Source: Lysobacterales bacterium (GTDB lineage: Bacteria > Pseudomonadota > Gammaproteobacteria > Xanthomonadales > Ahniellaceae). Taken from it: a stretch of DNA of 64,000 nt. Every line of letters starts with the position of its first letter. Within the stretch, counting starts at the first letter, position 1. Made by a program: the position numbers and the translations under genes. This document shows positions 1-18,855 of this stretch, in pieces. The notes beneath the pieces were generated by a model. It was not told the origin of the DNA, made no database searches, and worked only from the letters and a program-made list of their open reading frames with translations. The stretch spans positions 112,067 through 176,066 of the forward strand of contig JADKHK010000007.1 of the NCBI GenBank assembly GCA_016721845.1. Reading direction: 5' to 3'.

Positions 1-141
1 GCGGAAGGGAAGTTCGAAGAATGGAACTTCAAACCTGTGCCAGTGCGCGAGCACTTCGCGGTCACGGCAAAAGTGTTGAAGGAAATCGCCAATCTTCCCA
101 ACGGGGCGAGCGTGCGCCCTCAGCATCGCGGAGTGATCTAA
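1..141 (+). CDS. 3' end of an integron cassette ORF (partial; start lies left of the window), hypothetical protein
   Basis: Frame 1 is open from base 1 (AEGKFEEWNFKPVPVREHFAVTAKVLKEIANLPNGASVRPQHRGVI*). Its TAA stop (139-141) lies inside the attC inverse core ATCTAAC (136-142), a typical cassette ORF/attC arrangement. No homolog recognised. Confidence 0.45.
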   Translation, partial: AEGKFEEWNFKPVPVREHFAVTAKVLKEIANLPNGASVRPQHRGVI

Positions 142-150
142 CTATGTGCT
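136..150 (+). other. attC recombination site, left (R''/L'') half, separated from its right half by an IS
   Basis: ATCTAAC (RYYYAAC inverse core) followed by TATGTGCT. The same start (GTCTAATTATGTGTTCAAGCCGAC) is seen uninterrupted in the attC at 1982. The IS inverted repeat begins at 151. Confidence 0.6.
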
Positions 151-1592
151 ATGGACTCCTCCCCTACGTCAACCTGATTGATCCTGTTCTGCTTCATCAC
201 GGGTGGATCGGTGCAAGCGTCTATCCGTCCTCGAAGTGGCGGGATCATCCGCCGGGACATCATGGAATCCGCAGGTGTGGGGCCTATCGTTCAAGCGACC
301 TCGAGGGTCGACATAGTTATCGGCCTTGCCACACCGCGGCCGAGCCGCTGGTGATGAGGTTGATCTGATCGATCCGTTGACGTGCCGCTCTGTGGTGAAA
401 GGGTGTGGTGCGTTGACTGCGGGTATCGATCAGGCGCTGGTCATCACGATCTCCTGATCGAAGCGTTTGCCGTAGTCGGCATCGAAGCTGCGTGCGTGGT
501 GCCACGTCGCCCAGATGATGCGCACCATTTTGTTCGCAAGGCCGACTGCCGCCTTGTTGAAGCCGCGGCGTTCGGCGAGCGCGACCGCCCAGGCGCGCAA
601 ACGATCGAGCGGCTTGCCCGCAGCCTGCGCACGTTTTGCCGCCGCGAGTACCGCACGCGCCCTTGAATCAGCAGCGTGCGGCAATACACGTCGCCGCACT
701 TGCTCATGCGCCCCAGTTGTCGCGTCGATCCGCTCGAATGCTCCTTTGGCGTGAAGCCGAGCCAGCTCGACAGCACGCGACCATTCTTGAAGCGATGAAT
801 GTCGCCGACCGATGCGCGCACTGCCGTTGCCGTGACCCAGCCGATGGTCGGCAACTTCTCCAGATCGGCGATCACGCGATCGTCCTTCGCTGTCGACGCG
901 AGTGCACGATCGGCGTCGACGACGCGTTGTTCGAGTGCGCGAATCTCATCGAGCAGCGATGCGATCAGATCGCGCATGCGCTGATCGAGTGCCTCGTGAC
1001 CAAGCGCCGTGCGCATCGCCTGCTGGCCACGCTCGGCGCCTTCGGGAATCACGATGCCGAATTCGCGCAGCAAGCCGCGCGCGAGATTGATGCGTGCCGT
1101 GCGCGTCTCTTGCCACTGCTGACGCGCACGATGCAGCAACTGGATCACCTGCTGCAGCTCGGTCTTGATCGGCACCGGCTTCAGGTCGATGGCACGCGCC
1201 GCTTCGATCATCGCCAGGCAATCCGCAGCGTCGGTCTTGCTGCGCCGCACATAGGGGCCGCACGTACTGCGCCGGAAGCAGCGTCACCTGATGACCCAGC
1301 GCACTCAGCCAGCGGCCGAAATGATGCGCCGAGCCGCAGGCTTCCATCACCACCCGCACCGGTGCACGGTTCTGCCAGAACGCGATGAACTGCGCACGCG
1401 ACAGCCGATGTGAATCGATTGCCCTGCCGTCCTGATCAACGGCGAGCACCTGGAACACCGACTTCGCGAGGTCGATGGCGATGGTGGCGACAGCGGGATT
1501 ACACTTCATGGCGGACTCCTCCGGCGGTGACTGATGCCTCAACACCTTCAGACTGGCACTTCGATGCCGATGCCGCGCCGGGAGGAGTCCAT
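151..1592 (-). mobile_element. IS110-family insertion sequence of the IS1111-like, attC-targeting type (coordinates are IR to IR; true ends may extend a few bp, to about 149 and 1600)
   Basis: Perfect 13-bp inverted repeats: ATGGACTCCTCCC at 151-163 and its reverse complement GGGAGGAGTCCAT at 1580-1592. They enclose an IS110-type transposase. The flanks reconstitute one attC (ATCTAACTATGTG... / ...TTCAAGCCGAC...GTTAGAC). About 7 nt lie between the right IR and the attC sequence, consistent with the subterminal IRs of IS1111 relatives. Confidence 0.8.
430..1509 (-). pseudogene. IS110-family (DEDD) transposase, broken by two frameshifts
   Basis: Three consecutive minus-strand frames give an IS110-type transposase. 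N-terminus: MKCNPAVATIAIDLAKSVFQV...LLPAQYVRP. Middle: (Y)VRRSKTDAADCLAMIEAA...HRFKNGRVLSSWLGFTPKEHSSG...MSKCGDVYCRTLLIQG. C-terminus: ARAVLAAAKR...GFNKAAVGLANKMVRIIWATW. The junctions fall at a G4 run (1254-1257, one base too many) and a C3 run (660-662, one base too few). GGAGGA RBS lies upstream of the ATG at 1509. Confidence 0.85.
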
Positions 1593-1646
1593 CCCATCAT
1601 TCAAGCCGACGTCGCTCCGCGACGCGGCTTAACTCAGGCGTTAGAC
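1593..1646 (+). other. attC recombination site, right half (L'/R'), ends cassette 1
   Basis: TTCAAGCCGACGTCGCTCCGCGACGCGGCTTAACTCAGGCGTTAGAC. Imperfect palindrome (AAGCCGACGTCGC / GCGACGCGGCTT) ending in the core GTTAGAC (GTTRRRY, 1640-1646). Close to the aadA/Xanthomonas-type attC consensus as I recall it. Confidence 0.7.
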
Positions 1647-1650
1647 ACCA

Positions 1651-1956
1651 ATGCCAACCGTCTTCGTGTACGGGTTCAGAGGCAAGTACACCGGGTCTCC
1701 GGTGTACGACTATTCGCATCCCGAGCTCAACGCCACGCACAAATGCATGCTCTTCCTGTCGCAAGAAAGCGATCAGAGCCAGATGCACCTAGCCGGAGCC
1801 GAGTGCCTGAAGTACGGCTTCGGCGAGTACGAATTTTCCCGCGCGGGGAGGCTGGACATTGATTCGCTGAACACGGACACCTTTCGCGGCTTTTCGGGGT
1901 ACTACGAAGAGGCCCTGAGCCAGGGTAGTGCGCTGGTCTTTTATCCCAATGCTTGA
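1651..1956 (+). CDS. cassette-borne hypothetical protein (101 aa)
   Basis: ATG 5 nt after the attC core and ORF followed by the next attC. GC visibly lower than the surroundings. No family recognised (MPTVFVYGFRGKYTGSPVYDYSHPELN...). Confidence 0.6.
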   Translation: MPTVFVYGFRGKYTGSPVYDYSHPELNATHKCMLFLSQESDQSQMHLAGAECLKYGFGEYEFSRAGRLDIDSLNTDTFRGFSGYYEEALSQGSALVFYPNA

Positions 1957-1981
1957 GGTTCGCGTGCATGGCCGCGTTAGC

Positions 1982-2071
1982 GTCTAATTATGTGTTCAAG
2001 CCGACCGCCGAGGAAGTTGCTCGCATCATCCAAACACCGTCGCGCGGCGGCGGCATGACACGGCGTTAGAT
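1982..2071 (+). other. attC recombination site (about 90 bp)
   Basis: GTCTAAT (1982-1988) TATGTGTTCAAGCCGACCGCC ... CGCGCGGCGGCGGCATGACACGGCGTTAGAT, with core GTTAGAT at 2065-2071. Inverse core and core are complementary in 5 of 7 positions. GC-rich internal inverted repeats. Confidence 0.65.
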
Positions 2072-2654
2072 GGCATTTCTCGTGAACGACCCAACACAGA
2101 ACTTTGCTACGGCCGCGCGAATATTCTGTTCGGGGGTTGAAAGCCCTCCTGGTGAGCCATCGAGCGAGGTGGTCGCTGCGCTCCCGGCATCTCATGCGCC
2201 TGTACCGGGCCGCACTCGAGCTTCCGGAGCGCTTCGAGGACTTCGACGCTCCGCGTGTTTCAGACGAGGAATGGAAAGTAGTGTTTCGTCGCTTCGGGTC
2301 ACTTCCGTTCAACTACTACGCCGAGTGCTTCGATCCCCTAACCGTCCCTTGCGAGGAACCTGTCGTCTCAGATCTTGCGGACGATCTCGCGGACATCTGG
2401 AGAGACATTAAGGCGGGTCTGGTGTTGTATGAGACGGGGCACCCTGACGCAGCGGTCTGGGAATGGAAGCAGCATTTTCAGTTCCATTGGGGCATCACGC
2501 GGTCGGCGCGATGTATGCGCTGCATTGCTGGTTGGCGCAGAACCCGGACAAAATGCCATCTAACCAGCCGCTCCACCCCGACGCTTCGCGCGCAAGCGCG
2601 CTCAGCGCGGGCGAGCGCCAGCCTCCGCCGCGCGGCGGCATGACACGTCGTTAG
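2070..2654 (+). pseudogene. DUF5063-like cassette gene, apparently frameshifted at least twice
   Basis: Frame 2070: MAFLVNDPTQNFATAARIFCSGVES. Frame 2104: HLMRLYRAALELPERFEDFD...DLADDLADIWRDIKAGLVLYETGHPDAAVWEWKQHFQFHWG. Frame 2463: HHAVGAMYALHCWLAQNPDK. Joined, they read like a DUF5063-type protein (family assignment from memory). Shifts lie between about 2140 and 2190 (C-run 2183-2185) and at the G-run 2489-2492. The 3' end is uncertain: as written the last frame reads through the whole attC to the TAG at 2652-2654. Confidence 0.55.
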
Positions 2655-2656
2655 AC
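2558..2656 (+). other. attC recombination site (about 99 bp)
   Basis: ATCTAAC (2558-2564) ... CGCGCGGCGGCATGACACGTCGTTAGAC with core GTTAGAC at 2650-2656. The 3' end is nearly identical to that of the attC at 1982-2071. Confidence 0.65.
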
Positions 2657-2670
2657 CGCAGGGTGAATCA

Positions 2671-3210
2671 ATGCAGCTATCTCTGGACCAGGATTTGCAA
2701 TCCGCAATGCGACGCACACACTTGGATGGCGCACCTGGGGTCGCTGCCTCTGGCGCCGTGTGGCTAGTGTCTGCGGTAGTGTGTTTCGGATTGGGCGTGC
2801 CAAAAGCCGTGTGGGCTTTGTTGATCGGTGGAGCGCTCATTTCGCCCCTCAGCAATGTACTCAAGAAGCTGTTGGGTGCCCCCTCGGAAGCGAAGCCGAA
2901 CAACGCACTCAACCATTTGGCGCTGGCCACCACGATTTGGCTGATCGCCTGCTGCTTTATGGCCTTTGGCCTGTATCTGCACGACGAGACATGGTTCTTT
3001 CCGGCCATGATGCTGACGATCGGAAGTCGCTATCTGGTCTTTTCAATACTGTTCGGCCTAACGATCTATTGGGTTCTAGGCGGCCTGCTCATCGGCGCTG
3101 GTGCGTTAGCCTTCTACCTGTCGTCGCCGGCGTTGTACTCGGCGCTCGTCGGCGCAGCAGTCGAGATCGCTTTCGCAGTCATCCTCTTCTCCAGACTCTC
3201 ACGCCATTGA
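2671..3210 (+). CDS. polytopic membrane protein (179 aa), first gene of a two-gene cassette
   Basis: ATG 15 nt after the attC core. About five hydrophobic helices (e.g. AVWLVSAVVCFGLGV, TTIWLIACCFMAFGLYL, LTIYWVLGGLLIGAGALAF). Good third-position GC bias. Confidence 0.7.
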   Translation: MQLSLDQDLQSAMRRTHLDGAPGVAASGAVWLVSAVVCFGLGVPKAVWALLIGGALISPLSNVLKKLLGAPSEAKPNNALNHLALATTIWLIACCFMAFGLYLHDETWFFPAMMLTIGSRYLVFSILFGLTIYWVLGGLLIGAGALAFYLSSPALYSALVGAAVEIAFAVILFSRLSRH

Positions 3211-3932
3211 AAACCAACAAGTTCGCTTCATTGATCCGCGCGATCGGGCTTTTCGGTTGTCTGGCAGCACAGTCTTCGACCTTTGCCGAAACGGCGAAGA
3301 GCGAAAACTATCCGCCCGTCGAACGTGCGTCCTTCCATCAGTTGGTCTTCGCAGACGACGACTTCGCGGTCCTCGACAATCTCTATCCGCCCGGTGGCGA
3401 TTCCGGTTTTCATGCCCACTATCGCGACATCTTCTACGTCGTGATCCAGCCCGGACAGGGCGGCCGCAGCCAAAAAATTGGGGAGCCCATGGCTGCTGTG
3501 CCGAAGCCTGTCGCGGGAGACGCCGCATTTGGCGGCCTGGGCGGCGAACCTCGCCTTCATCGGGTGGTGAACGGTGACAAGAGCGCCGCCCAGTTCATCG
3601 TCGTCGAGTTGCGCCGCGCCAAACCTCTGGGAAGCACCGCTTCGTCGCGCGAGGACTCGAAGCGCTACACGCAGATTGCGGACAATCCTCGGCTGCGCGC
3701 TTGGCGCCTTGTCTTGGAACCAGGCCAGTCTACGGCGTCAATTTCGCAGATCGGCAAGGGCATCCGCATTGTCGTGCGCGGCGGCACCTTGAGCACCATT
3801 TCTCCCGGCATGCCTGACCAGATTTTGGCGTTGCGGTCTGGCGACTTTTCAGTTCAGTATCCCGGCTTCACGCGCGCACTCACCAACTCCGGCACCGAAG
3901 CGATTGAGTTGGTCGAGATGGAGCTGAAATAG
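3207..3932 (+). CDS. secreted cupin-like protein (241 aa), second gene of the same cassette
   Basis: TTG start overlaps the upstream TGA (TTGA, 3207-3210). Signal peptide KTNKFASLIRAIGLFGCLAAQSSTFA/ET. Cupin-like motif GGDSGFHAHYRD and a second beta-barrel-like half. This is only the 3' two-thirds of track ORF 2760..3932; the 5' third overlaps the membrane gene out of frame. Confidence 0.7.
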   Translation: MKTNKFASLIRAIGLFGCLAAQSSTFAETAKSENYPPVERASFHQLVFADDDFAVLDNLYPPGGDSGFHAHYRDIFYVVIQPGQGGRSQKIGEPMAAVPKPVAGDAAFGGLGGEPRLHRVVNGDKSAAQFIVVELRRAKPLGSTASSREDSKRYTQIADNPRLRAWRLVLEPGQSTASISQIGKGIRIVVRGGTLSTISPGMPDQILALRSGDFSVQYPGFTRALTNSGTEAIELVEMELK

Positions 3933-3940
3933 GACCTCTG

Positions 3941-3999
3941 CCCACTCACCCAGCATTCAAGCCGACGCCTCTTCATTCCGGCGTCAGGCCTCGCAAGAC
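3941..3999 (+). other. degenerate attC relic
   Basis: CATTCAAGCCGACGCC (3954-3969) ... GGCGTC (3980-3985) ... GCAAGAC (3993-3999). It keeps the TTCAAGCCGAC box and the central inverted repeat, but both cores are mutated (GCAAGAC instead of GTTAGAC). Confidence 0.4.
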
Positions 4000-4024
4000 G
4001 TACCCTTGGCACACAGGAGTGACC

Positions 4025-4441
4025 ATGAAGATCACCGTCTCGACCGTCGTTGCGGCTCCGTTGGACGTCGTCTGGGCTGCGTACACCACGCCCGATGACA
4101 TCAAGGTCTGGAACGCGGCCTCGCCGGACTGGCACACCACCGCGTCGACGGTGGATCTCAGGCCGGGCGGCAAGTTCTCTTCCCGGATGGAAGCCAAGGA
4201 CGGATCCTTCGGATTCGATTTCGCGGGCGAGTACACGAACATCGTTCACCTCGAGCTGATCGAGTACGCGTTCGGCGAGCGCATTGGCAGAGTCGAGTTC
4301 AAGGAAGGCCCGGATGGCGTCACGGTGACCGTCACCTTCGATGCCGAGCAGACCCATTCCGAAGAACAGCAACGTGGCGGCTGGCAAGCCATCCTGGACA
4401 GCTTCGCGCGCCACGTCTCGAGCAGGTTGGCCTCGCAGTAG
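4025..4441 (+). CDS. SRPBCC / Aha1 (AHSA1)-domain protein (138 aa)
   Basis: AGGAG RBS (4015-4019) 5 nt before the ATG. MKITVSTVVAAPLDVVWAAYTTPDDIKVWNAASPDWH...FDFAGEYTNIV...GWQAILDSFARHV is the typical AHSA1/SRPBCC pattern. Confidence 0.85.
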   Translation: MKITVSTVVAAPLDVVWAAYTTPDDIKVWNAASPDWHTTASTVDLRPGGKFSSRMEAKDGSFGFDFAGEYTNIVHLELIEYAFGERIGRVEFKEGPDGVTVTVTFDAEQTHSEEQQRGGWQAILDSFARHVSSRLASQ

Positions 4442-4454
4442 CCGCGCCTGCCGC

Positions 4455-4475
4455 TGCTCAGCTCAAACGTCAGAC
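4455..4475 (+). other. possible truncated attC remnant (R' side only)
   Basis: TGCTCAGCTCAAACGTCAGAC resembles GGCTTAACTCAGGCGTTAGAC of the attC at 1626-1646, but the core is GTCAGAC and no left half is present. Confidence 0.25.
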
Positions 4476-4485
4476 CGCACACGCA

Positions 4486-4755
4486 ATGGAGATCAAGATG
4501 GGTGCTGCATTCTGGGTGAAACGAATCCTGCTGGCGTTCGCCGTGGCGTTCTTTGTTCTTCTCGGCGCAGAGCTCGCGAAGGGACACTCGCAGATGGCGG
4601 CACTTCAATTTGCCGGGTTGTGGGGCGTTGCCACCAGCGCGATCTTCACCCTCGCCAGCTACCGCCGCTACAGGCGCAATCCGGCATGCTGGCTTGGCGT
4701 CACCGCGAGGTCCGACAAACCAATCAAGCCGAAGCCGCTTCGCGGCGCGGCTTGA
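4486..4755 (+). CDS. small membrane protein (89 aa), cassette-like
   Basis: Two hydrophobic helices (ILLAFAVAFFVLLGA; GLWGVATSAIFTLAS). The C-terminal 15 or so codons are encoded by the attC relic. No family recognised; the start could be the ATG at 4498. Confidence 0.5.
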   Translation: MEIKMGAAFWVKRILLAFAVAFFVLLGAELAKGHSQMAALQFAGLWGVATSAIFTLASYRRYRRNPACWLGVTARSDKPIKPKPLRGAA

Positions 4756-4767
4756 CTCAGGCAGCAC
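4711..4767 (+). other. degenerate attC relic
   Basis: TCCGACAAACCAATCAAGCCGAAGCCGCTTCGCGGCGCGGCTTGACTCAGGCAGCAC. The central part (AAGCCGCTTCGCGGCGCGGCTT) is an almost perfect attC-type palindrome. The R' core is lost (GCAGCAC). Confidence 0.5.
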
Positions 4768-4811
4768 GCTCGCGTCGTCGAGCGGCACTTCAATATCAAG
4801 GATGGCCGACC

Positions 4812-5204
4812 ATGCAGCTCTTGCTTGCCACTGCCGCAGTTCTGGCGACCGTCACCGGCGTGGTTCACTCTGTGCTGGGTGAGCGCCTGATCTTCCGTCA
4901 CCTGCGTGCATCCACCCTCGTTCCTTCGCTTCCGGCGAAGCCGCTGCAGGGGCGGCATGTGCGCATTCTCTGGGCCACCTGGCATCTGGCGTCCGTTCTT
5001 GCCTGGGCGTTCGCGGCCTTGCTCTGGATGCTTGCGACGCATCCCGAGGCGGTGTTGTCGTCGCGGTCGATCCTTGCTGCTGCGACGGCGGCCTTTCTGG
5101 CAGGCGCGCTCCTCGTCCTTGTCGGCACCCGCGGTCGTCATCCGGGCTGGGTCGCACTCGCCGCAGTCGGCATCCTGTCGGCGGTGACCACGAGTGGCAC
5201 CTGA
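4812..5204 (+). CDS. membrane protein (130 aa)
   Basis: Internal ATG of track ORF 4341..5204. Four hydrophobic segments (MQLLLATAAVLATVTGVV..., ILWATWHLASVLAWAFAALLWML, ILAAATAAFLAGALLVLV, WVALAAVGILSAV). Confidence 0.65.
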   Translation: MQLLLATAAVLATVTGVVHSVLGERLIFRHLRASTLVPSLPAKPLQGRHVRILWATWHLASVLAWAFAALLWMLATHPEAVLSSRSILAAATAAFLAGALLVLVGTRGRHPGWVALAAVGILSAVTTSGT

Positions 5205-5288
5205 GCACTCACCCGAGCCGGCGTCGCCCATGGTCCGCCCCGTGCTTCCGGGCTTGGACGACATCGTCGCGTCCTATGACCGGGCGAC

Positions 5289-5717
5289 GTGGGGCCGATC
5301 ATCGAGGGTCACTACGCGCTGGCCGAGCGGGCGGGCGGTCTGGCGGCGCTGGTGCCGCTGTTGGTGATGGCGTTTCGAAAGATCAAGTCGTTCAAGGGAC
5401 GCAAAGTCATCCTGCACTTCATCTTGCCCTACGTGCGCTGCACGCGCGAGGTGCTGGACATCGGCCTGTTCGCGTTGGCGGACAAGTCTCGGGTCGTCCG
5501 GGAAGACGCGCTCGCGCTGATTGCCTATTCGCTGGACGAACGCGCAATGCCGGCCCTGATCGCCCATGCCGATCATGCCGATCAGCGCGACCGCGATTCC
5601 GCCCACGCCGCAATCGACGCGATTCGCAATCGGAACCACCACCTGTTCCTGGATCGGGACCATGCCGGCAATGTCGTGTGGCGCGTGACCGATGCGTGTG
5701 GAAAGATCGCGACCTGA
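5289..5717 (+). CDS. hypothetical protein (142 aa), possibly HEAT-like helical repeats
   Basis: Strong third-position GC bias across the ORF. GTG start as in the track; the true start is uncertain. No family recognised. Confidence 0.55.
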   Translation: MGPIIEGHYALAERAGGLAALVPLLVMAFRKIKSFKGRKVILHFILPYVRCTREVLDIGLFALADKSRVVREDALALIAYSLDERAMPALIAHADHADQRDRDSAHAAIDAIRNRNHHLFLDRDHAGNVVWRVTDACGKIAT

Positions 5718-5772
5718 GTCCGCGCCGGACCCGAACACCGGCCGCAGCCCGCGCCGATACTGGAGGTCCTCG

Positions 5773-6144
5773 ATGAACATCCTGTTGTGGGTCCTGCAGG
5801 CGCTGGCCGCGCTGCTGTACGGCGCGTCGGGGGTCATGAAGGTGTTCATGTTCGAGCAGATCAGCGCGGATGTGCCGTCGTTCGGCGCCTTGCCGCGGGA
5901 GGTCTGGATGGCTCTTGGCGTCATGGAGCTCGTCTGCACGGTCGGGCTGATCGTTCCGGCCGCCTTCCATTGGCAGCCGCGACTGACGGTGCTGGCGGCC
6001 GCGCTGCTGGCGATCGAGAGCCTCGTGTTCATCGGCGTGCACGTGAAGTACCACGAGCTCGGGTCCATCCTGTTCAGCGCCGTGCTGGGCCTCGCCATGG
6101 CATTCATCGCCTACGGCCGGATGGTCCTGAAACCGATCCTGTGA
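5773..6144 (+). CDS. DoxX-like family membrane protein (123 aa)
   Basis: GGAGG RBS (5763-5767). MNILLWVLQALAALLYGASGVMKVF... plus four TM helices is the DoxX-like pattern. Confidence 0.8.
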   Translation: MNILLWVLQALAALLYGASGVMKVFMFEQISADVPSFGALPREVWMALGVMELVCTVGLIVPAAFHWQPRLTVLAAALLAIESLVFIGVHVKYHELGSILFSAVLGLAMAFIAYGRMVLKPIL

Positions 6145-6226
6145 GCGCGGTGTCGGCCGGTGAGCGATGGCTTCGAGGGCGACGGGCGGTTATCGTCGCC
6201 GGCACGTCGACCCGTTGCGAGCGCCC

Positions 6227-6424
6227 ATGACCGGACCCGCGTTTCCCGACCTGAAAGATGGCGCCCGCTGCCAGGTGGTGGGCGGGACACACGCCGGCAA
6301 GTCCGGCATGGTCACCGACATCCACACCAGCAAGACCGGGCACGTCACCCTGACCGTCGTGCAGCGGGATGGCGTCCGCTTCAAGACGCTCGCGAAGAAC
6401 GTGCGAATCATCGGCGCGACGTGA
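6227..6424 (+). CDS. small KOW-motif protein (65 aa)
   Basis: Internal ATG of track ORF 6167..6424. [21 protein letters not shown] fits a KOW motif. Confidence 0.6.
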
Positions 6425-6503
6425 ACGAACTGCGGCCCGAACCCGCATCCGCGCGGATGCCGGTGTCGGAAGGATGAATCCTGATCGGATCGGGAGTGGG
6501 CCC

Positions 6504-6904
6504 ATGCTCAAGACCTACCAAGGCAGTTGCCATTGCGGCGCGGTCCGCTTCGAGGCCGACCTCGACCTCGCCCAAGGCACCTATCGCTGCAACTGCAGCA
6601 TCTGCAGGCGCACGCGCTTCTGGCCGGCGGTCGCGCGCGAGGGCGGATTCCGCCTGCTGGCCGGCGAGTCGGAATTGACGAAGTACCTGTTCCACTCCAG
6701 GAAGAACGAACACTACTTTGCCGTCATTGCGGCGTGCGCGCGTTCGGCATCGGCACCGAGACACCGATCGGCCGGATGTACGGGGTCAATCTCGGCTGCC
6801 TGACCGACATCACCGACGAGGAATTGTCGACAGCGCCGATCACCTATGTCGACGGGCGCAACGACCAGTGGCAGCAGGCGCCCGAATTCTTCGCACACCT
6901 GTAG
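6504..6904 (+). pseudogene. GFA (CENP-V/glutathione-dependent formaldehyde-activating) family protein, single frameshift
   Basis: Frame A: [43 protein letters not shown]...[11 protein letters not shown]. Frame B: [28 protein letters not shown]...QWQQAPEFFAHL. The join is at the T3 run 6717-6719; a fourth T would give ...HYFCRHCG..., restoring the conserved Cys motif. Confidence 0.8.
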
Positions 6905-6958
6905 CCGTTGCGATTGCCGTACGGTTCGGGCGAGCACCGCCGCGTAGGGGACACGATC

Positions 6959-7565
6959 ATGAATGATGATCCGCTGTATCACGACGGCATGCGCGCGCTG
7001 CAGGACGCGCGCGAGACCCGGGCGCTGGCCGACCGCTTGGCGCAGGTCACCGTGCGTGCGACGTTCACGCCCGAGGATCGCGGCTTCATCGAGACCCGGC
7101 CGATGTTCTTCATCGCCACGGCCGATGCGCGCGGCCATCCGGATTGTTCCTGCAAGGGCGGCTTGCCCGGCTTCGTGCGCGTGCTCGACGAACGCACGCT
7201 TGCCTTCCCCGACTACGACGGCAACGGGATGTACCGGACCCGGGCAACATCGGCGTGAATCCGCATGTCGGACTGCTGTTCCCGGACTTCCAGACGCCGA
7301 AGCGGTTGCGCGTCAACGGCACTGCGACGGTCCACGCCGACGATCCGTTGCGTCAGGACTTTCCGGGATCGGTCTTCATCGTCCGCGTCGCGGCCACCCG
7401 GATCTTCCCGAACTGTCCGCGTTATCTCCACGCCATGCCGCTGGCCGAGTACTCGGCCTATGCGCCCCGGGCCGACTACACGCCGCCGGTACCGGCGTGG
7501 AAGACCTTCGAGGCCTTCCGCGACGCCTTGCCGGCACGCGATCGCAGCGACGACACCAGGGCTGA
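6959..7565 (+). pseudogene. pyridoxamine 5'-phosphate oxidase-like FMN-binding family protein, frameshifted; 3' end uncertain
   Basis: MNDDPLYHDGMRALQD...MFFIATADARGHPDCSCKGGLPGFVRVLDERTLAFPDYDGNGMYRT continues in another frame as GNIGVNPHVGLLFPDFQTPKRLRVNGTA...IFPNCPRYLH. The shift is at ACCCGGG, 7238-7244. The second frame has no stop and runs antisense into the permease gene. A further 1-nt indel near 7555 would give a TGA at 7563-7565. Confidence 0.75.
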
Positions 7566-7581
7566 GCCGGGTGGCGCCGCC

Positions 7582-8847
7582 TCAGTCGGTGCGCAAGGCC
7601 GCGATCGGGTCGAGGTCGGCGGCCTGGCGGGCCGGATAGACGCCGAAGGCGAGGCCGGTGAGGGCGCAGACGAGGGTCGCCGTGAGCACCGGGATCGGCG
7701 CCCAGCCGACGGTCCAGCCGGCGAGCCAGGCGATGGCGTAGGCGAGCACGCCGCCGAACACCAGCCCGAGCAGGGCACCGACGCCGCAGATCAGCGCTGC
7801 CTCGCGCATGAACTGTTCGATCACGTCGCGGCGACGCGCACCGAGCGCGCGCAGCAGCCCGATCTCGCGTTTCCGCTCCAGCACGTTCGCCAGCATGATG
7901 TTCATGATGCCGATGCCGCCAACCAGCAGCGATACCCCGGCGATGGCGGCCATCACGATCCGGAAGATCCGCTGCGTTGCCTGGTGCTGCTGGTAGAGCT
8001 GGGCCGGCACGATCAGCGTGTAGTCCTTCTGTCCGGCATGGCGCTGGTCGAGCATTGCCGACAGCACCTTCGAGCCGTCGACGATATGCGCGGGATCGTC
8101 GAGCTGCACCAGGAAACGGTCGATCTCATCCTCCATCGGCTGGAAGCGCAGACGCGCCAGCGCCGACCCCAGCGGCACGAAGACACGATTGCTCTCGAGG
8201 CCGAGTTGCACGCCTTCGAATTGGTCCTTGCTGAGATCGCGATCCGTGAGCACGCCGATCACCTCGAACCAGGCGTGGTTGACCTTGACCAGTTCGCCGA
8301 CCGCGCTGCGGCCCGGAAACAGGGTCTTCGCGGCCTGATGGCCCAGCACCGCGACCGCCGCGAGGCGATCATCATCGCTGTCATCGAACGCACGTCCCTG
8401 CGCGACCTGCAGCGAGGACAATGCGAAGTAGCCGGGCGTGACGCCGCTCGCGACCGCGTCGGACTTGCTGAATTCGCTGAGCACCGAATGGGTCTTGATC
8501 GCCTTTTCCGCAGCGATGCCGGTGGCGCCCGGCACCACGTCGAGCGCGGCGTCGGCGTCGGCGCGGGTGAGGCCGAGACTGCGTGCGCGCATCTCGCGCA
8601 GTGCATCTTCGTCCGGTGGCGACTCGGTCTTCGCGATCAGGTTGCGCAGTCCGAGGCCTTCGACCAGCTTCAGGGCTTCCTGCCGCGAGCCTTCGCCGAC
8701 GCCCTGCATCGCGACGATCGAGCCGACGCCGAAAATCAGTCCGAGCAGGGTCAGCAGGGTGCGCAGGCGCCGCCGCCACAATTCCTCGACGGCTTCGCGC
8801 CAATGGGTGCCGAAGCCTTGTCCGATCCGATCGAGCAAGGTGCTCAT
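7582..8847 (-). CDS. ABC transporter permease, MacB/FtsX family (421 aa)
   Basis: N-terminal TM helix, large periplasmic domain, then an FtsX-type C-terminal 3-TM bundle (IGIMNIMLANVLERKREIGLLRALGARRRDV...). Start overlaps the upstream stop (ATGA, 8844-8847). Confidence 0.9.
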   Translation of the reverse strand: MSTLLDRIGQGFGTHWREAVEELWRRRLRTLLTLLGLIFGVGSIVAMQGVGEGSRQEALKLVEGLGLRNLIAKTESPPDEDALREMRARSLGLTRADADAALDVVPGATGIAAEKAIKTHSVLSEFSKSDAVASGVTPGYFALSSLQVAQGRAFDDSDDDRLAAVAVLGHQAAKTLFPGRSAVGELVKVNHAWFEVIGVLTDRDLSKDQFEGVQLGLESNRVFVPLGSALARLRFQPMEDEIDRFLVQLDDPAHIVDGSKVLSAMLDQRHAGQKDYTLIVPAQLYQQHQATQRIFRIVMAAIAGVSLLVGGIGIMNIMLANVLERKREIGLLRALGARRRDVIEQFMREAALICGVGALLGLVFGGVLAYAIAWLAGWTVGWAPIPVLTATLVCALTGLAFGVYPARQAADLDPIAALRTD

Positions 8848-10118
8848 CCCATCCTCCGCATGCCGCCGCCACGGCCGCCGCGCGCACCGTCACCGCCGGG
8901 TGCGGCGTAGCGCTTGGCGTCGGGGTCCGCGGCATTCGCAGCCGGCGTCAGGACCACCGCGTCGCCGGCCTGCAATCCCTTGACCACTTCGCTGCGGGCG
9001 GTACCGCGCGCGCCGAGTTCCACTTCGCGCTTCGCGACCTTGCCGCCGGCGCGCACCTCGACATAGGTCTTGCCGCCTTCGGCGATCAGGGCCACGTTCG
9101 GCACCGACAAGCCCTGGCCGGATTCGCCGGTGTAGACCTCGGCGGCCATGCCCTGTCCCGGCACCAGGCGATATTTCGCCACCGCTTCCGCCGGCACGAC
9201 GGCTTTCATCAACAGGTACTTCACCGGGTTCTGGCGACTGCGCGACTGCGCCGCGCCGGCGACCCAGCTGACGGTGCTCGCGAATTCCTGGTCTGGGCGA
9301 CCGAGCGCGTGCATCTTGACGCGTGCGCCGACCTTGACGCCCTGGGCATCGAGCTGGGTCAGCGCGAACTGCACTTCCAGCGCGGCCAGTTCCGGCAAGG
9401 CGCCGAATTCCTGGCCGGCCCACATGCTGGCGCCGACCTTGGGTTTCTCGCCACCCCAGTCGGTGTTCAACACGAACACGCCTTCATGCGGCGCGCGCAG
9501 CTCCAGCGCGGCCACGTCTTCGCGGCGTCGCCGGGCATTGAGGTCATAGGTCGCGCGCTGCGAATCGAGCACCGCCAGTTCCGCGCCGCCGCGCACGCCG
9601 GTCTGTTGTTGTTGCCATTCCAGCGTCTCGTGTTTGTAGCCGAGGAAGGCAGCGTCCTGCACCGCATCGAGAATCTCGTTGCGCGCGAACATGCCGAGAT
9701 CGGCCCCGGCATAACGCTCGGCGATGCCAAGATCGACGTCGACCTTGGCGATCTCGGCGCCGACCTTGTCCTGCGCGGTCGAGAGTTCGATCTCCTTGCC
9801 CATGCGCGCCAGCACGTTGCGGCGCAGGTCGAGTTCGGCCTTGGTCAATTCGAGTTCGCCCTGCGGCGCGATGAAGCGCGCGATCAACTCGCCCTGCTTC
9901 ACTTGCGAGCCCTCGGGCACCATCCACTCCAGCTGACGTTGCGACCAGCCCTGGCCGGGCACCGACAGGGGCGTGGCCTTGGCCGAACGGACCTCGCCGG
10001 TCGCCATCACCCGCAGCGACAGCGCCGATGCCCGCACGACCTCGACCGGCGCATCCAGCGCCGCATCCTGGCCGCAGCCGGCGAGCGCGAGCAGGGGCCA
10101 CATCCGCATCCATTTCAT
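8844..10118 (-). CDS. HlyD-family periplasmic adaptor (membrane fusion protein) 3, lipoprotein (424 aa)
   Basis: MKWMRMWPLLALAGC lipobox, a coiled-coil hairpin region, beta-barrel/MP domains, and a Gly/Arg-rich tail. ATGA overlap with the upstream gene (10115-10118). Confidence 0.85.
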   Translation of the reverse strand: MKWMRMWPLLALAGCGQDAALDAPVEVVRASALSLRVMATGEVRSAKATPLSVPGQGWSQRQLEWMVPEGSQVKQGELIARFIAPQGELELTKAELDLRRNVLARMGKEIELSTAQDKVGAEIAKVDVDLGIAERYAGADLGMFARNEILDAVQDAAFLGYKHETLEWQQQQTGVRGGAELAVLDSQRATYDLNARRRREDVAALELRAPHEGVFVLNTDWGGEKPKVGASMWAGQEFGALPELAALEVQFALTQLDAQGVKVGARVKMHALGRPDQEFASTVSWVAGAAQSRSRQNPVKYLLMKAVVPAEAVAKYRLVPGQGMAAEVYTGESGQGLSVPNVALIAEGGKTYVEVRAGGKVAKREVELGARGTARSEVVKGLQAGDAVVLTPAANAADPDAKRYAAPGGDGARGGRGGGMRRMG

Positions 10119-11071
10119 GGCTGTTTCTCCGTCGCCGCGACCAGCACCACGCGGACCGGCTGACCTGGTTTGAGCGCCTGGCCCTTGGGATCGAAGCTGA
10201 CCACCGCATCGACCACCGGCACCAGTTGCGAGCGCGACTTGCTGCGCACGGCGCGACCGATCTCGCTGACCTTGCCCTCGATCGCCTGACCAGCGCCGCC
10301 TTCGACGATGACCCGGGCCTGCATGCCGACGCTGACGCGCCGGATCTCGGTTTCGGGCACGGCGACGCGCGCGATCAAGGTCGACACGTCCGGGATCTGC
10401 GCCACCGACTGGCCACGGAACACCTGCGAGCCGACATCGAATTTCTCGCCCTGCCAATTGCTCTGGTGCAAGATGATGCCGTCGCGCGGCGCCTTCACGT
10501 TCAGTTCCTGCATCGCCTTCTGCGAGCGTTCGACTTCGCCGCGCAGCTGCGTCAGTTCCGCTTCGACCAGGCGCCATTCCTGCTTGCGCTGCTCGGCGGC
10601 GGCCAGTTCGCGTCGCGTCGCAAGCGCCAGCTGCTTCTCGGCCTGTTCGCGTTCGATCACCAGTTTCTGGTAATCGACGCGGCGCACGATGTCGACCGGC
10701 TGGTCGGCCTTGCGCGTGGCCTTTTCGGCATTCGATTTCGCCTGCGCCGTGGCCAATGCCTCGGTCCGCACGCGCTCGGCGAGTTCGAGGCGCAGGCGTT
10801 CGCGCTGCGTCTCCTTTTCCTTCAGTGCACTCTGCTTTTCAGTGAGCTTGCGCATCACCTCCGAGCTGTCGAAGGCGGCCACGACTTGATCCTTCTTCAC
10901 CGGCGTGCCATCCGGCGCGAGCTGGGTCAGGGTGAGCTGCCACAGATCATCGATCGCGGGCGGCGATATCGCGGCACTCTCGCGAGCGGCGATCTCGCCG
11001 TCGAAACTGAGTTCGGCGGCTGCCAGCGACAGGCTCGCCAGCAGCAGGCTGGTCGCGATGATCGTCTTCAT
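10115..11071 (-). CDS. HlyD-family periplasmic adaptor 2 (318 aa)
   Basis: Signal peptide MKTIIATSLLLASLSLAAA, a long charged coiled coil (KLTEKQSALKEKETQRERLRLELAERV...) and a beta-barrel C-terminus. ATGA overlap at 11068-11071. Confidence 0.85.
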   Translation of the reverse strand: MKTIIATSLLLASLSLAAAELSFDGEIAARESAAISPPAIDDLWQLTLTQLAPDGTPVKKDQVVAAFDSSEVMRKLTEKQSALKEKETQRERLRLELAERVRTEALATAQAKSNAEKATRKADQPVDIVRRVDYQKLVIEREQAEKQLALATRRELAAAEQRKQEWRLVEAELTQLRGEVERSQKAMQELNVKAPRDGIILHQSNWQGEKFDVGSQVFRGQSVAQIPDVSTLIARVAVPETEIRRVSVGMQARVIVEGGAGQAIEGKVSEIGRAVRSKSRSQLVPVVDAVVSFDPKGQALKPGQPVRVVLVAATEKQP

Positions 11072-12069
11072 GACTGGGCGCCCTTCGTGGCGGCGTCCGG
11101 CGCGGCCGGCACCGACTCGACGCGCACGCTCGACGCCGGCAACAAGCCGAGGTCGGCCGAGTTCTCCAACGGAATGGTCACGGTGAAATAGCGGCCGGCG
11201 CCCATTTCCATCTTCGCTGCGGGCGCACCGGAAATCGCGCTGATGGTGGCATCGAGTTTCAGGTCGGGGCGCGCATCGAATCGCAGGTGGACCTTCTGGC
11301 CGACGGCCAATGCCGAACGATCGGCTTCCAGTGCATAGGCCTTGATCGTCATCGGGCCGCGGTCGACGATCTCGCCGACCTTCATGCCCGGCCACGCCGA
11401 GGAGCCTTCGTCGAAGCGATCGCCGCGCCACGGGTTGAAGCCATGCACGACGACACCGTCGACCTCGGCCTTCACTTCCGCCAGCGCCACCTGGGCCTGG
11501 TTGTACAACAGGTCCTGATGCAACTTGTCGATCTCCAGGCGTGCGTCTTCACGACGGCGCGTCACGGCGGCGCTCGCGGCGTCGCGTTCCTTGAGGCGCA
11601 GGGCGAGATCGCGCTCGGTGCGCACCTGCTCACCCTGGTAGCGGTCGTAGTCGAGCGCGGACAGGTGCTGCTTCGGAATCGCGGCATCGACCCGGGCCTT
11701 GCGGAACAATGCATCGGCATCGACCCAGGCCCGCTCGGCGTCGATCGCGGCGACCGTCAAGGTCGCGATCTCCTGCGCCGCCCGAGCCTCGGTCTGCTCG
11801 ATCTGCGCGGTCAGGGTCTGGATCATCGCCGCGCTCGCACCGGCATCGATGCGCACGACGACATCACCGCGCTTCACCGCCGACCCCTCCGACACGTAGT
11901 AGCGCAACACGACCGGCGAGGTGTTCGAGGGCGGGCAGTACACCGGCTGCGCATTCATCGCGACCACTTCGCCGCTGAGGATGACGCGCGACGTCGGGTT
12001 GGCGAAGACCGAGCTGCAGCACAGCACCCACAACAGCAAGGCAGGAGCGCATCGTTCAACGTTTCGCAT
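11068..12069 (-). CDS. HlyD-family periplasmic adaptor 1 (333 aa)
   Basis: Signal-like N-terminus MRNVERCAPALLLWVLCCSSVFA, a lipoyl-like motif (GSAVKRGDVVVRID) and a coiled coil. The start overlaps the ATPase 3' end by 14 nt. Confidence 0.8.
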   Translation of the reverse strand: MRNVERCAPALLLWVLCCSSVFANPTSRVILSGEVVAMNAQPVYCPPSNTSPVVLRYYVSEGSAVKRGDVVVRIDAGASAAMIQTLTAQIEQTEARAAQEIATLTVAAIDAERAWVDADALFRKARVDAAIPKQHLSALDYDRYQGEQVRTERDLALRLKERDAASAAVTRRREDARLEIDKLHQDLLYNQAQVALAEVKAEVDGVVVHGFNPWRGDRFDEGSSAWPGMKVGEIVDRGPMTIKAYALEADRSALAVGQKVHLRFDARPDLKLDATISAISGAPAAKMEMGAGRYFTVTIPLENSADLGLLPASSVRVESVPAAPDAATKGAQS

Positions 12070-12730
12070 CGGATTCCACCAGGCCGTCGCGCAGGCGCAC
12101 ATGGCGCGGCACACGTGCGGCGATGTCGTTGTCGTGGGTGACCAGGACGATGGTCTGGCCCTGGGCATGCAGTTCCTCGATCAGGCCGAGTACGTCGGCC
12201 GCGCTCTTTGAATCGAGGTTGCCGGTGGGCTCGTCGGCGAGCAGCAGGGCCGGGCTCAGGATCAGCGAACGGGCAATCGCCGCACGCTGCATCTGGCCGC
12301 CGGAGAGCTGGGTCGGGCGATGATCCATGCGGTCGGCCAGGCCGACGCGCGCCAGCAGGTCGCGTGCGCGCGCACTCACGTCCGGCTTCGGCTCCCGCGT
12401 GAAGCGCAGCGGCAGCAGGACGTTCTCCAGCACCGTCAAGCGCGGCAGCAGGTGGAAGCTCTGGAAGATGAAGCCGATCTTGCGGTTGCGCACGGTGCTG
12501 ATGGCCTCGTCGTCGAGGCGCGAGACTTCCTGTCCATCCAGCACATACGAGCCCGAGTCGGGCTTGTCGAGACAGCCGAGCACGTTCAGCAGGGTCGATT
12601 TCCCCGATCCCGAGGGTCCCGTGATGGCGACGAATTCGCCGGCGTCGACGTGCAGGGAGACATCGTCGAGCGCCCGCACTTCGGCGCCGTGCATGTCATA
12701 GGTACGGGAGATGTGTTCGACCTGGATCAC
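12056..12730 (-). CDS. ABC transporter ATP-binding protein, MacB/LolD-like (224 aa)
   Basis: Walker A GPSGSGKST, Q-loop, signature LSGGQMQR, Walker B LLLADEPT, H-loop VTHD. GTG start chosen at VIQVEHISRTY. Confidence 0.9.
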   Translation of the reverse strand: MIQVEHISRTYDMHGAEVRALDDVSLHVDAGEFVAITGPSGSGKSTLLNVLGCLDKPDSGSYVLDGQEVSRLDDEAISTVRNRKIGFIFQSFHLLPRLTVLENVLLPLRFTREPKPDVSARARDLLARVGLADRMDHRPTQLSGGQMQRAAIARSLILSPALLLADEPTGNLDSKSAADVLGLIEELHAQGQTIVLVTHDNDIAARVPRHVRLRDGLVESDAKR

Positions 12731-12858
12731 TGCGACTTCCCTGTAGCGAATGGCTACAGACCATGGGGACGCGGAAAGGTTCCGCAACGGCTGCAACGCC
12801 GGAACCGCCAGAGGTCATGCGACGGGATGGGGCGTTGGTGCATCGGGGCGGGTGCGGG

Positions 12859-14685: not shown

Positions 14686-14759
14686 CGCTGGATTTTCCGC
14701 CGGGCGCAGCCTGCGCCGCGGCTATACTACGGCGCTTTTCGCCCCAGACCGGAATCCCC

Positions 14760-15659: not shown

Positions 15660-15662
15660 ACC

Positions 15663-17765: not shown

Positions 17766-17798
17766 TTGTCGTCGCGCAGGGCACGTCGATTGACCGAC

Positions 17799-17836
17799 GT
17801 TCTCAATTCGGCTACAAATGTAGCTGAATTGAGAAC
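17799..17836. promoter_or_regulatory. 38-bp AT-rich near-perfect palindrome: candidate operator of the wHTH-NTase gene, or the glyS terminator hairpin
   Basis: GTTCTCAATTCGGCTACA-AA-TGTAGCTGAATTGAGAAC. Arms match at 17 of 18 positions. It ends 3 nt before the ATG at 17840 and lies 34 nt after the glyS stop. Confidence 0.45.
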
Positions 17837-17839
17837 GCC

Positions 17840-18830: not shown

Positions 18831-18855
18831 GCGTGTGAACAGCCAATACCGCACC

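Follow-up and report, generated by a model that had tools for sequence, protein, structure and literature searches.

Do the small, same-strand genes at the left end of this DNA belong to an integron, and can that integron still exchange its cassettes? We analysed a window of 64,000 nucleotides (64 kb). A first-pass annotation had read positions 1-4770 as a gene-cassette array. Our results support this reading through attC homology, folding, an independent covariance model and an adjacent integrase, and the region very probably holds the cassettes of a sedentary chromosomal integron, whose host is an uncultured bacterium of the Xanthomonadales/Rhodanobacteraceae. The platform is of an ordinary kind already known and leaves current understanding unaltered. 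It adds one well-resolved, apparently still-active chromosomal integron from an activated-sludge-type Xanthomonadales lineage. A single array displays the whole gradient from a variable first cassette through intact proximal sites to degenerate distal sites and finally genes without attC. The visibly lower GC content ascribed to the cassettes is borne out as well (0.60–0.63 in 1-5000 vs 0.65–0.72 across most of the remaining window).

The scheme of capture, excision and expression from the promoter Pc is established integron biology, which we apply here by inference. To capture a cassette, IntI would recombine attI, the entry point for new cassettes, with the bottom strand of an attC folded as a hairpin. 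Recombination of one attC with another would excise a cassette. The promoterless cassettes would be transcribed from a promoter close to intI.

Table 1. Positions of array, insertion sequence and neighbouring features in the window
Positions	Strand	Feature	Basis or remark
1..141	+	Cassette 1 ORF, 3' end, T6SS_Tdi1_C-like	weak Pfam match only
136..148	+	attC1, left part: R'' ATCTAAC and spacer TATGTG	
149..1600	-	Insertion sequence (IS), IS1111-attC group, 1,452 bp	transposase opposed to cassettes
151..163	.	Left subterminal inverted repeat ATGGACTCCTCCC, perfect 13 bp	direct reading
270..338	-	Predicted seekRNA core, in non-coding region downstream of transposase gene	conserved motif
430..1509	-	DEDD (IS110-family) transposase gene, broken in window	
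1580..1592	.	Right subterminal inverted repeat GGGAGGAGTCCAT, partner of 151-163	direct reading
1601..1646	+	attC1, right part: L'', central stem, L', R' GTTAGAC	covariance model, 46.9 bits
1651..1956	+	Cassette 2 ORF, 101 aa, without known family	cassette spans 1641-2065
1982..2071	+	attC2, 90 nt, aadA-like ends, expanded centre	covariance model, attC-like fold
2070..2643	+	Cassette 3 ORF, DUF5063 (190 aa in contig L001)	Pfam
2558..2656	+	attC3, atypical	perfect R boxes; 3' 29 nt 90% identical to attC2
2671..3932	+	Cassette 4, two overlapping ORFs	
2671-3210	+	Cassette 4 ORF a, DUF7010 membrane protein	Pfam
3207-3932	+	Cassette 4 ORF b, 241 aa, N-terminal signal-like segment	sub-threshold cupin similarity
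3943..3999	+	Possible attC remnant, statistically unsupported	24 nt 88% identical to 1593-1616
4025..4441	+	Cassette 5 ORF, AHSA1/SRPBCC, 138 aa	Pfam
4410..4475	+	Degenerate attC, R'-like GTCAGAC at 4469-4475	16.6 bits, E 0.13
4486..4755	+	Cassette 6 ORF, 89-aa small membrane protein	
4710..4769	+	Degenerate attC, L boxes and central stem kept, both R boxes lost	
4812..7565	+	Six small same-strand genes: 130 aa, 162 aa, DoxX_2, KOW-like, GFA, PNPOx	Pfam

Integrase and attachment site left of base 1

No IntI homologue is encoded within the 64-kb window, as one would expect of a CALIN, a cluster of attC sites without integrase. We reject this very improbable explanation because an integrase gene adjoins cassette 1, both on the window's own contig and on a sister contig. 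The former, 223,484 bp long, encodes MBL0040401 (MBL0040401.1), a 342-aa integron integrase. Consecutive NCBI accessions follow for the cassette-1 protein (MBL0040402), whose C-terminal 46 residues are the translation of window 1-138, and for a transposase fragment (MBL0040403), which is the window ORF 444-1250 on the minus strand. Window 1-18847 is matched at 99.8% identity by the sister contig, L101, which reaches 2,416 bp further left (L101rc position 2417 is window base 1). This extension carries intI, a candidate attI and cassette 1. Judged from the consecutive protein accessions and the 99.8%-identical sister contig, intI appears to be located left of base 1 on the window's contig. An intact gene (342 aa) very probably lies about 0.5–1.5 kb beyond base 1 on that side, with its transcription directed away from the cassettes.

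The integrase of the sister contig shares 55% identity with IntI1, and the alignment runs ungapped through the integron-specific extra domain (ALERKYPRAGHSWPWFWVF). Its catalytic residues R, K, H, R, H and Y are conserved, as read from the IntI1 alignment, and it matches TIGR02249 at 477 bits (cut-off 265). The integron thus has an IntI-clade tyrosine recombinase that carries the additional domain, encoded outside the window. Full-length proteins of 342 aa make up 8 of the 11 sequences of its own 90% cluster, from several assemblies.

At 130–165 nt from the intI start, outside the window, the sister contig has a candidate attI, ...GGAGAATTAGCG|TTAGAT, and a sequence like it stands ahead of another first cassette in contig L003. 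The candidate site would lie some 355 bp to the left of base 1, so that the window would open inside the first cassette. By orientation, intI, attI and Pc had all been expected on this side. intI was recovered from the same contig's proteins and from L101, and the candidate attI from L101; Pc was not found when the intI-attI region was scanned, simply and crudely, for a sigma-70 consensus.

attC sites and cassettes

Direct reading of the sequence confirms all six proposed core heptamers: ATCTAAC (136-142), GTTAGAC (1640-1646), GTCTAAT (1982-1988), GTTAGAT (2065-2071), ATCTAAC (2558-2564) and GTTAGAC (2650-2656). GTCTAAT departs from strict RYYYAAC; L101 reads GTCTAAC there. One could argue that such sites are unrelated palindromes, for example REP elements or terminators, which end in TAAC...GTTA by chance. 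Indeed, the bare RYYYAAC...GTTRRRY pattern is non-discriminating, being no commoner than in shuffled sequence (4 matches vs 1.7 ± 1.8), and chance R-box pairs also occur at 3056-3111 and 51085-51145. The probability of this explanation is nevertheless close to nil. It is contradicted by homology along the full length of thousands of genuine attC sites, by covariance-model matches confined to the array, by the extrahelical bases of the folded sites and by the adjacent integrase.

The covariance model was built here from 13 attC sites, all from outside the window, and was run over both strands of the 64 kb. It is small and biased to 60-nt aadA-type sites. Its four top matches all fall within 1-4770 on the plus strand. 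Two are significant (1587-1646 with 46.9 bits, E 4e-9, and 4717-4762 with 25.6 bits, E 8e-4) and two are marginal (4410-4475 with 16.6 bits, E 0.13, and 1982-2071 with 15.1 bits, E 0.31). The model scores the proposed sites at 2558-2656 and 3943-3989 below significance, with 8.4 and 6.7 bits, respectively. The site at 2558-2656 is statistically unsupported as an attC, perfect though its R boxes are. Among the decayed copies that had been listed, the one at 3941-3999 is statistically unsupported. No attC was detected by the model beyond 4770.

In a set of 17 distinct attC sites, pairing extends to 88.6% of the R/L-box cells, compared with 17–42% in slid controls. Compensatory changes occur at 8 pairs, and the R and L boxes are supported by covariation. 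The array contains at least two attC sites with extrahelical bases and with R' GTTRRRY at the junctions. Without its insertion sequence, attC1 is 85–88% identical to the aadA2 and qacF attC sites found on about 4,970 plasmids. Its fold is that of the aadA2 attC (z −5.3), bulged T and G included. The window's copy of attC1 is short of one T at 148 relative to contigs L004, L009 and L101. attC2 scores 15.1 bits in the window; the L101 copy, with GTCTAAC as its R'', reaches 21.7 bits. Sites of the attC2 family accompany other cassettes in contig L107, and no match to attC2 was found among plasmids. attC3 has neither the spacer nor the first half of L'' (fold z −1.0; 8.4 bits). The claim that two types of attC 3' end coexist is correct, with 2047-2075 and 2632-2660, the 3' ends of attC2 and attC3, being 90% identical. 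The degenerate site at 4710-4769 is 79% identical to 1587-1639.

Likeness to attC falls off with distance along the array. By sequence, attC1 and attC2 look functional; attC3 is atypical and the three sites after it are remnants. The sites are closely related to those of clinical aadA and qacF cassettes, a kinship that fits the long-held view that the Xanthomonadales are one source of class 1 integron cassettes.

Cassette 1 would start at the candidate attI, and the translation of 1-138 is the C-terminus of P0253 (MBL0040402.1). A stop codon had been reported within the inverse core (139-141). This codon is likely to be artefactual: an additional C stands near 116-118 in the window, and the cassette-1 ORF of L101 stops at TGA 133-135. 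Of the suggested cassette contents, Pfam confirms DUF5063, a membrane protein (DUF7010) and AHSA1/SRPBCC; the cupin is sub-threshold and unproven. The frameshifts of the window are assembly or sequencing errors rather than gene decay. Single-base indels at 660 and 1254 break the window's transposase gene, which is intact (359 aa) in L004 and L101, and the frameshift in cassette 3 at 2183 is an artefact.

The six small genes at 4812-7565 give no attC signal in the covariance model. These genes, which both of the nearest named relatives lack beside macB, may be former cassettes.

Mobility of the array and relation to other integrons

Comparison with relatives reveals the presence/absence polymorphism that the first-pass annotation had called for, and places it at the array's proximal end. 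One and the same 101-aa cassette is joined at G|TTAGAC to three different preceding attC sites. In the window this is attC1 with its insertion sequence, in L003 an attC of 56 nt that follows a 66-aa cassette, and in contig L008 an attC of 112 nt. Moreover, the first cassette varies among contigs that are otherwise 99.5–99.8% identical, with junctions at G|TT. The cassettes are thus mobile and occur in differing contexts. Short-read contigs that cross the 1.45-kb insertion sequence (L004 and L009) may be mis-joined, and we therefore excluded the left/right pairings there from the evidence.

It is also conceivable that the platform is a fossil, with an immobile array whose strain differences reflect old events or homologous recombination and not present IntI activity. 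The insertion sequence splits attC1, attC3 and later sites are degenerate, and the order is fixed in all contigs examined from the 101-aa cassette onward. In addition, many Xanthomonas integrons are inactive (PMC12444791). We consider a fossil unlikely, since IntI is full length with conserved catalytic residues and the first cassette differs, at G|TT junctions, between nearly identical contigs.

A second possibility is a mobile class 1-like integron carried by a transposon or plasmid. Our integron resembles class 1 in the architecture of IntI, including the extra domain, and in the sequence and fold of attC1. A class 1 integron is defined by a near-identical IntI1 and a Tn402-derived backbone. 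Here, IntI is just 55% identical to IntI1, the gene tables of the flanks hold neither tni genes nor a 3'-conserved segment, and there is no Tn402 backbone, no qacEdelta1-sul1 and no resistance cassette (Pfam finds no resistance-gene family among the cassette proteins). The locus is chromosomal, with the same flanks, a GT2 glycosyltransferase gene and a macB-type efflux operon, in several assemblies, and attC2 is without a plasmid match. A mobile class 1-like integron is extremely unlikely.

We return to a sedentary chromosomal integron. Chromosomal integrons of Xanthomonas and other Xanthomonadales were reportedly treated by Gillings et al. in 2005. In Xanthomonas the integrons have ilvD nearby. 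The immediate neighbours here are the GT2 gene and the macB-type operon, and IntI is intact. Shared with the integrons of Xanthomonas and, more widely, the Xanthomonadales order are the sedentary platform and the small cassettes of mostly unknown function (PMC12444791). Xanthomonadales integrons also have homogeneous aadA-like attC sites, with degenerate sites at the far end and some genes without recognisable attC (PMC12444791).

The insertion sequence in attC1 and its predicted guide RNA

The first-pass annotation had described the first site as split by an insertion sequence. The element is real (149-1600), with perfect 13-bp subterminal inverted repeats. Its transposase matches Pfam DEDD_Tnp_IS110 and Transposase_20 and, at 300 bits, the NCBIfam model for IS110 RNA-guided transposases; the non-coding region downstream of the gene is 149-429. 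The combination of DEDD transposase, subterminal inverted repeats and a long, guide-bearing non-coding region downstream of the transposase gene is that of the IS1111-attC group. Its members include ISPa25, ISKpn4, ISPst6, ISPa21, ISPa62 and ISPpu25 (Tetu & Holmes 2008; Post & Hall 2009, both as cited in PMC11187229), and insertions of this group are cited for Xanthomonadales integrons too (PMC12444791). The nearest plasmid relatives are ISPa25, ISKpn4, ISPa62 and ISPa21. At 48% amino acid identity of the transposase and about 70% DNA identity to ISPa25, the element is new.

As in other members of the group, the insertion lies between the R'' spacer and L'' of attC1, about 7 nt past R'' and directly before the TCAAG of L'', with the transposase oriented against the cassettes. 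Position and orientation within attC are those of ISPa25, ISPpu25 and ISKpn4. They are also the same in four attC sites that carry copies of the element (window/L101, the second copy in L004, and contigs L094 and L095), so one position and one orientation are fixed. The insertion would stop attC1 from folding, so that cassettes 1 and 2 would no longer be separately excisable, and it may affect transcription of the cassettes downstream.

For ISKpn4, a seekRNA has been shown experimentally, and the seekRNA mechanism is described (PMC11187229). The motif of the predicted seekRNA is shared with ISKpn4, ISPpu25, ISPa25 and the L095 element, with compensatory changes in a 5-bp hairpin. Either side of this hairpin lie predicted guide 1, GAUAACUAUGU, the reverse complement of 311-321, and predicted guide 2, GCUUGAACG, the reverse complement of 288-296. 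The predicted guides match both insertion flanks, TAACTATGT on one side and GTTCAAGC on the other. Because the predicted guide fits the insertion site exactly, the element would be a handy natural test case for seekRNA targeting.

The 5 nt after GAUAAC in guide 1 are UAUGU here, matching the local TATGT spacer, compared with AAUCA in ISKpn4 and AAUGC in ISPa25. The copies in L094 and L095, whose transposases are 90% identical to ours, have UAUUC with AATTC; elsewhere UAUGC and AAUGC occur with TATGT and TATGC. We tentatively propose that, within the IS1111-attC clade, the left guide of the seekRNA may have diversified, tracking the spacer subtype of the attC sites in the host integron. If this is true, every integron lineage has an insertion sequence tuned to its own array, a natural reprogramming of an RNA-guided transposase against integron recombination sites.

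The L095 contig, a 174-kb JGI metagenome contig, holds a complete integron with the same attC family, whose last attC carries the insertion sequence with the 90%-identical transposase. Its IntI is 59% identical to IntI1. Unlike the locus described here, it lies beside rluB and rne and has other cassettes. An extra IS5-like element is inserted there at an R' box.

Integrase and putative attachment site left of the array

Our results show that the cassette array at the left end of the window belongs to a complete sedentary chromosomal integron with aadA-like attC sites. Such integrons have long been known in Xanthomonadales (PMC12444791). The first-pass annotation had predicted that intI, attI and Pc lie left of base 1; within the window, a tblastn search with IntI1 found no IntI homologue. 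The window ORF 444-1250(-) is identical to MBL0040403.1, a protein from a 'Xanthomonadales bacterium' MAG on a contig of 223,484 bp. On a contig of the same length, an exact-sequence cluster look-up placed its neighbors in accession number, MBL0040400.1 (GT2 glycosyltransferase), MBL0040401.1 (integron integrase, 342 aa) and MBL0040402.1 (135 aa). The C-terminal 46 residues of MBL0040402.1 are the translation of window 1-138. Since MBL0040400-MBL0040403 are consecutive accessions, the order should be GT2, intI, cassette-1 protein, insertion sequence (IS) transposase.

The sister contig L101 (GCA_016722385.1, 144 kb, 'Rhodanobacteraceae bacterium') also places intI on the left, as predicted. 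It encodes an identical MacB, its reverse complement is 99.8% identical to window 1-18847, and it reaches 2,416 bp further left. This extension contains intI, which is directed away from the array and has its end 515 bp from base 1. Some 355 bp to the left of base 1 stands ...CCGTCGGAGAATTAGCG|TTAGAT, where cassette 1 begins and which we read as a putative attI. The third predicted part, Pc, was not found by a simple promoter scan; it would be expected left of base 1. The L101 IntI aligns with IntI1 at 55% identity and without a gap along 314 residues, a stretch that takes in the extra domain specific to integron integrases. Its score on TIGR02249 ('integron integrase', cut-off 265) is 477 bits. 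The catalytic residues R, K, H, R, H and Y are kept according to our reading of the alignment, and the enzyme may still be active. We rejected two other readings of the locus, a class 1 integron and a CALIN, that is, an attC cluster without an integrase.

One member of the 90% IntI cluster, HWT14787.1 on a 7.4-kb contig, is labelled as coming from the MAG of a 'Patescibacteria group bacterium', a label that most likely stems from mis-binning and does not name a real host. For the 46-aa fragment encoded by window 1-138 no homologues were found, and the exact 26-mer of window 16-41 is absent from the genome and metagenome contig collections searched.

attC sites and the extent of the array

Direct reading of the sequence places all three pairs of core heptamers where they had been claimed (see the table of features), and an ORF listing confirms small ORFs on the + strand after each site. 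The lower GC content of the cassettes is also borne out (0.60-0.63 in 1-5000 vs 0.65-0.72 over most of the remaining window). Repeat finding pairs 1587-1639 with 4710-4762 (79% identity) and 2047-2075 with 2632-2660 (90% identity). The bare pattern RYYYAAC...GTTRRRY does not discriminate, with 4 matches in the window vs 1.7 +/- 1.8 in dinucleotide shuffles. Rfam gave 0 matches in the window at the gathering threshold; we know of no attC family in Rfam.

We built a covariance model from 13 attC sites, all from outside the window, giving it only the R and L boxes as structure. Nine of these sites belong to class 1 integron cassettes (qacF, aadA2, aac(6')-Ib, blaOXA-17, blaGES-5, aac(6')-IIa, catB11 and two unnamed) and four to the metagenome contigs L095 and L003. 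In an unfiltered search of both strands of the whole 64-kb window, the four best matches all fall on the + strand within the claimed array; the next matches have E > 2 and are scattered. For the individual sites the outcome is mixed: the right part of attC1 and the degenerate site nearest the array end are recovered, attC2 and the other degenerate site are marginal, and neither attC3 nor the proposed decayed copy at 3943-3989 is supported.

Features of the array and its right flank, with covariance-model scores for attC sites
Feature	Position	Strand	Details
attC1	136-148 and 1601-1646		split by IS; cores ATCTAAC 136-142, GTTAGAC 1640-1646
attC1 right part, model match	1587-1646	+	46.9 bits, E 4e-9
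attC2	1982-2071	+	15.1 bits, E 0.31; cores GTCTAAT 1982-1988, GTTAGAT 2065-2071
attC3	2558-2656		8.4 bits; cores ATCTAAC 2558-2564, GTTAGAC 2650-2656
Possible decayed copy	3943-3989		6.7 bits
Degenerate attC	4410-4475	+	16.6 bits, E 0.13
Degenerate attC	4717-4762	+	25.6 bits, E 8e-4
IS	149-1600		perfect 13-bp subterminal inverted repeats 151-163 and 1580-1592
IS transposase gene	430-1509	-	359 aa, intact in related contigs L004 and L101; Pfam DEDD_Tnp_IS110, Transposase_20
Predicted guide motif	270-338	-	non-coding, downstream of transposase gene
Six small genes	past 4769 to 7565	+	130-aa, 162-aa, DoxX_2, KOW-like, GFA, PNPOx

Without the IS, attC1 is 60 nt long (136-148, a missing T, and 1601-1646). 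Matches to it occur in 4,970 plasmid records, most of them 80-90% identical, with at least 80% of the query covered in 4,307. Two annotated matches lie where an attC is expected: one after aadA2, between intI1 and qacEdelta1, the other after qacF in the array intI1-qacF-qacF-blaOXA-17-aac(6')-Ib. Folded as single-stranded DNA, the bottom strand of attC1 takes the same fold as the aadA2 attC (z -5.3 vs -6.1 for aadA2): the R boxes form a stem, the spacer stays unpaired, the L-box stem bears a bulged G, and a T is the second bulge. In 17 distinct attC sites, drawn from the window and from contigs related to it, pairing of the R and L boxes reaches 88.6% vs 17-42% with slid partners, and eight pairs carry compensatory changes, in an alignment that was fitted to the model and is therefore biased towards the structure.

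attC2 has no matches in plasmids, and searching metagenomes for the type-2 attC 3'-end pattern recovered only the present array. The attC2 site type is not private to this array: it also occurs in related contig L107 beside other cassettes, there with the canonical L' GGCTTAACAC. The R'' of attC2 reads GTCTAAT in the window and in contigs L003 and L004; L101 has the canonical GTCTAAC (window position 1988), and with this C the model score is 21.7 bits vs 15.1 in the window. In attC3, inspected by eye, both R boxes are perfect and the 3' half is of the attC2 type, but the spacer is missing along with the initial half of L''; such an atypical site is of doubtful function. The DUF5063 ORF (2070-2643) has no stop before attC3 and runs through about 85 nt of the site, ending in L'; its last 48 or so residues lie beyond the Pfam match. 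Chance R-box-like pairs without L boxes or significant model scores occur at 3056-3111 (GCCTAAC...GTTAGCC, within the DUF7010 gene) and 51085-51145 (GCTCAAC...GTTGAAC).

Judged by its attC sites, the array extends to about 4769. Beyond it come six small genes, up to the start of a convergent macB-type efflux operon at 7565. The model detects no attC signal in 4770-7650, the stretch that holds these genes. Next to macB, neither of the two closest named relatives (a Lysobacterales MAG and Aerolutibacter ruishenii, 69-71% MacB identity) has counterparts of them. The six genes may be old cassettes.

Cassette order in related contigs and assembly errors

Metagenome contigs 99.5-99.8% identical to the window share a fixed order from the 101-aa cassette onward (101 aa, DUF5063, DUF7010, 241 aa, AHSA1, 85/89 aa, 130 aa, on to the macB operon). 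Upstream of the 101-aa cassette the contigs vary. The window and L101 have the Tdi1-like cassette with the IS-split attC1; L003 has a cassette of 66 aa whose attC measures 56 nt, and an attI-like sequence stands before this cassette; and contig L008 has a 112-nt attC built like that of GES-5. All three contexts join the identical 101-aa cassette at G|TTAGACACCAATG, a shared junction that marks exchange of cassettes by the integrase at the end proximal to attI. The presence/absence polymorphism for which a check had been suggested is found at this proximal end of the array.

Contigs L004 and L009, short-read assemblies that cross the IS, were not counted as proof of shuffled cassettes, since such assemblies can be wrongly joined across a 1.45-kb repeat. 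L002 appeared to lack the DUF5063 cassette, wrongly, as the DNA is present. A difference at 5224-5657 in L001 (4678-4699) and L006 is a ragged internal deletion rather than a cassette excision; it removes most of the 162-aa gene in some strains and leaves a 20-nt remnant. The attI-like regions L003 1-66 and L101rc 2010-2066 are more diverged than the cassettes behind them, in arrays that are otherwise 99.6% identical: about 30 of 34 positions agree near the crossover, and further upstream the sequences are unrelated.

Gene decay could be invoked for the broken reading frames of four genes, those for the transposase, DUF5063, GFA and PNPOx. We rejected this explanation. The window differs from other assemblies by single-base indels at 148, 660, 1254, 2183, 5290, 6716, 7241, 7555 and about 116-118, which break the frames of these four genes and of the 162-aa gene and shift the cassette-1 stop. 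All but the last are contradicted by every short-read contig covering them, and L101 shows exactly nine gaps against the window, namely these eight and 116-118, which L101 alone covers. The frameshifts are therefore errors of long-read MAG assembly. By the same reasoning (an extra base near 116-118), the stop codon described inside the inverse core (TAA 139-141) is probably not the true one; this should be TGA 133-135.

The insertion sequence and its predicted guide motif

The IS within attC1 is a new member of the IS1111-attC group. Its closest plasmid relatives, ISPa25, ISKpn4, ISPa62 and ISPa21, are all attC-targeting IS1111 elements, and its transposase is 48% identical in amino acids to that of ISPa25. 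ISPa25, ISPpu25 and ISKpn4 occupy the same attC position in class 1 integrons, about 7 nt past R'' and directly before TCAAG, and like the window IS are oriented against the cassettes. Such an insertion would have cost attC1 its function.

The window IS has a predicted guide motif in common with these three elements; its own version reads, in RNA sense, GGCCGAUAAC-UAUGU-CGACC-CUCGA-GGUCG-CUUGAACG-AUAGGCC. Across five IS elements, compensatory changes occur in the inner hairpin. The segments flanking the hairpin correspond to TAACTATGT, left of the insertion point on the top strand, and to the complement of GTTCAAGC on the right. The same two-flank arrangement has been described for the seekRNA, or guide RNA, of ISKpn4 (PMC11187229), and the window IS may likewise produce a seekRNA. 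Across elements, the comparison is suggestive of a guide that tracks the attC spacer, with few independent cases.

Guide (5 nt after GAUAAC in the IS) and attC spacer (after TAAC)
Element or contig	Guide	Spacer
Window, L101, L004	UAUGU	TATGT
L107	UAUGC	TATGT
L094, L095	UAUUC	AATTC
L108	AAUGC	TATGC
ISPa25	AAUGC	AAGTC
ISKpn4	AAUCA	AATTCA
ISPpu25	AAUCA	AACTCA

L095, a 174-kb JGI contig, contains another complete integron (9700-16000), which shares the attC family and bears an IS whose transposase is 90% identical. The IntI encoded there shares 59% identity with IntI1, and the model gives 67-70 bits to three 60-nt attC sites. One attC has an IS5/IS1182-like element inserted at its R' box, and the IS1111 element occupies the last, decayed one; the same IS5-like junction occurs at the right end of L004. 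In contig L010 (300-410) the IS1111 element is cut short on its left by an adjoining IS3-family element, whose end meets it at the equivalent of about window position 156. On L094 (9800-14600) a second copy of the IS1111 relative of L095 lies in a small attC cluster (three model matches, 36-49 bits). No integrase was found within 10 kb on either side, and the cluster may be a CALIN. It adjoins a BrnT/BrnA toxin-antitoxin pair and a Transposase_mut gene.
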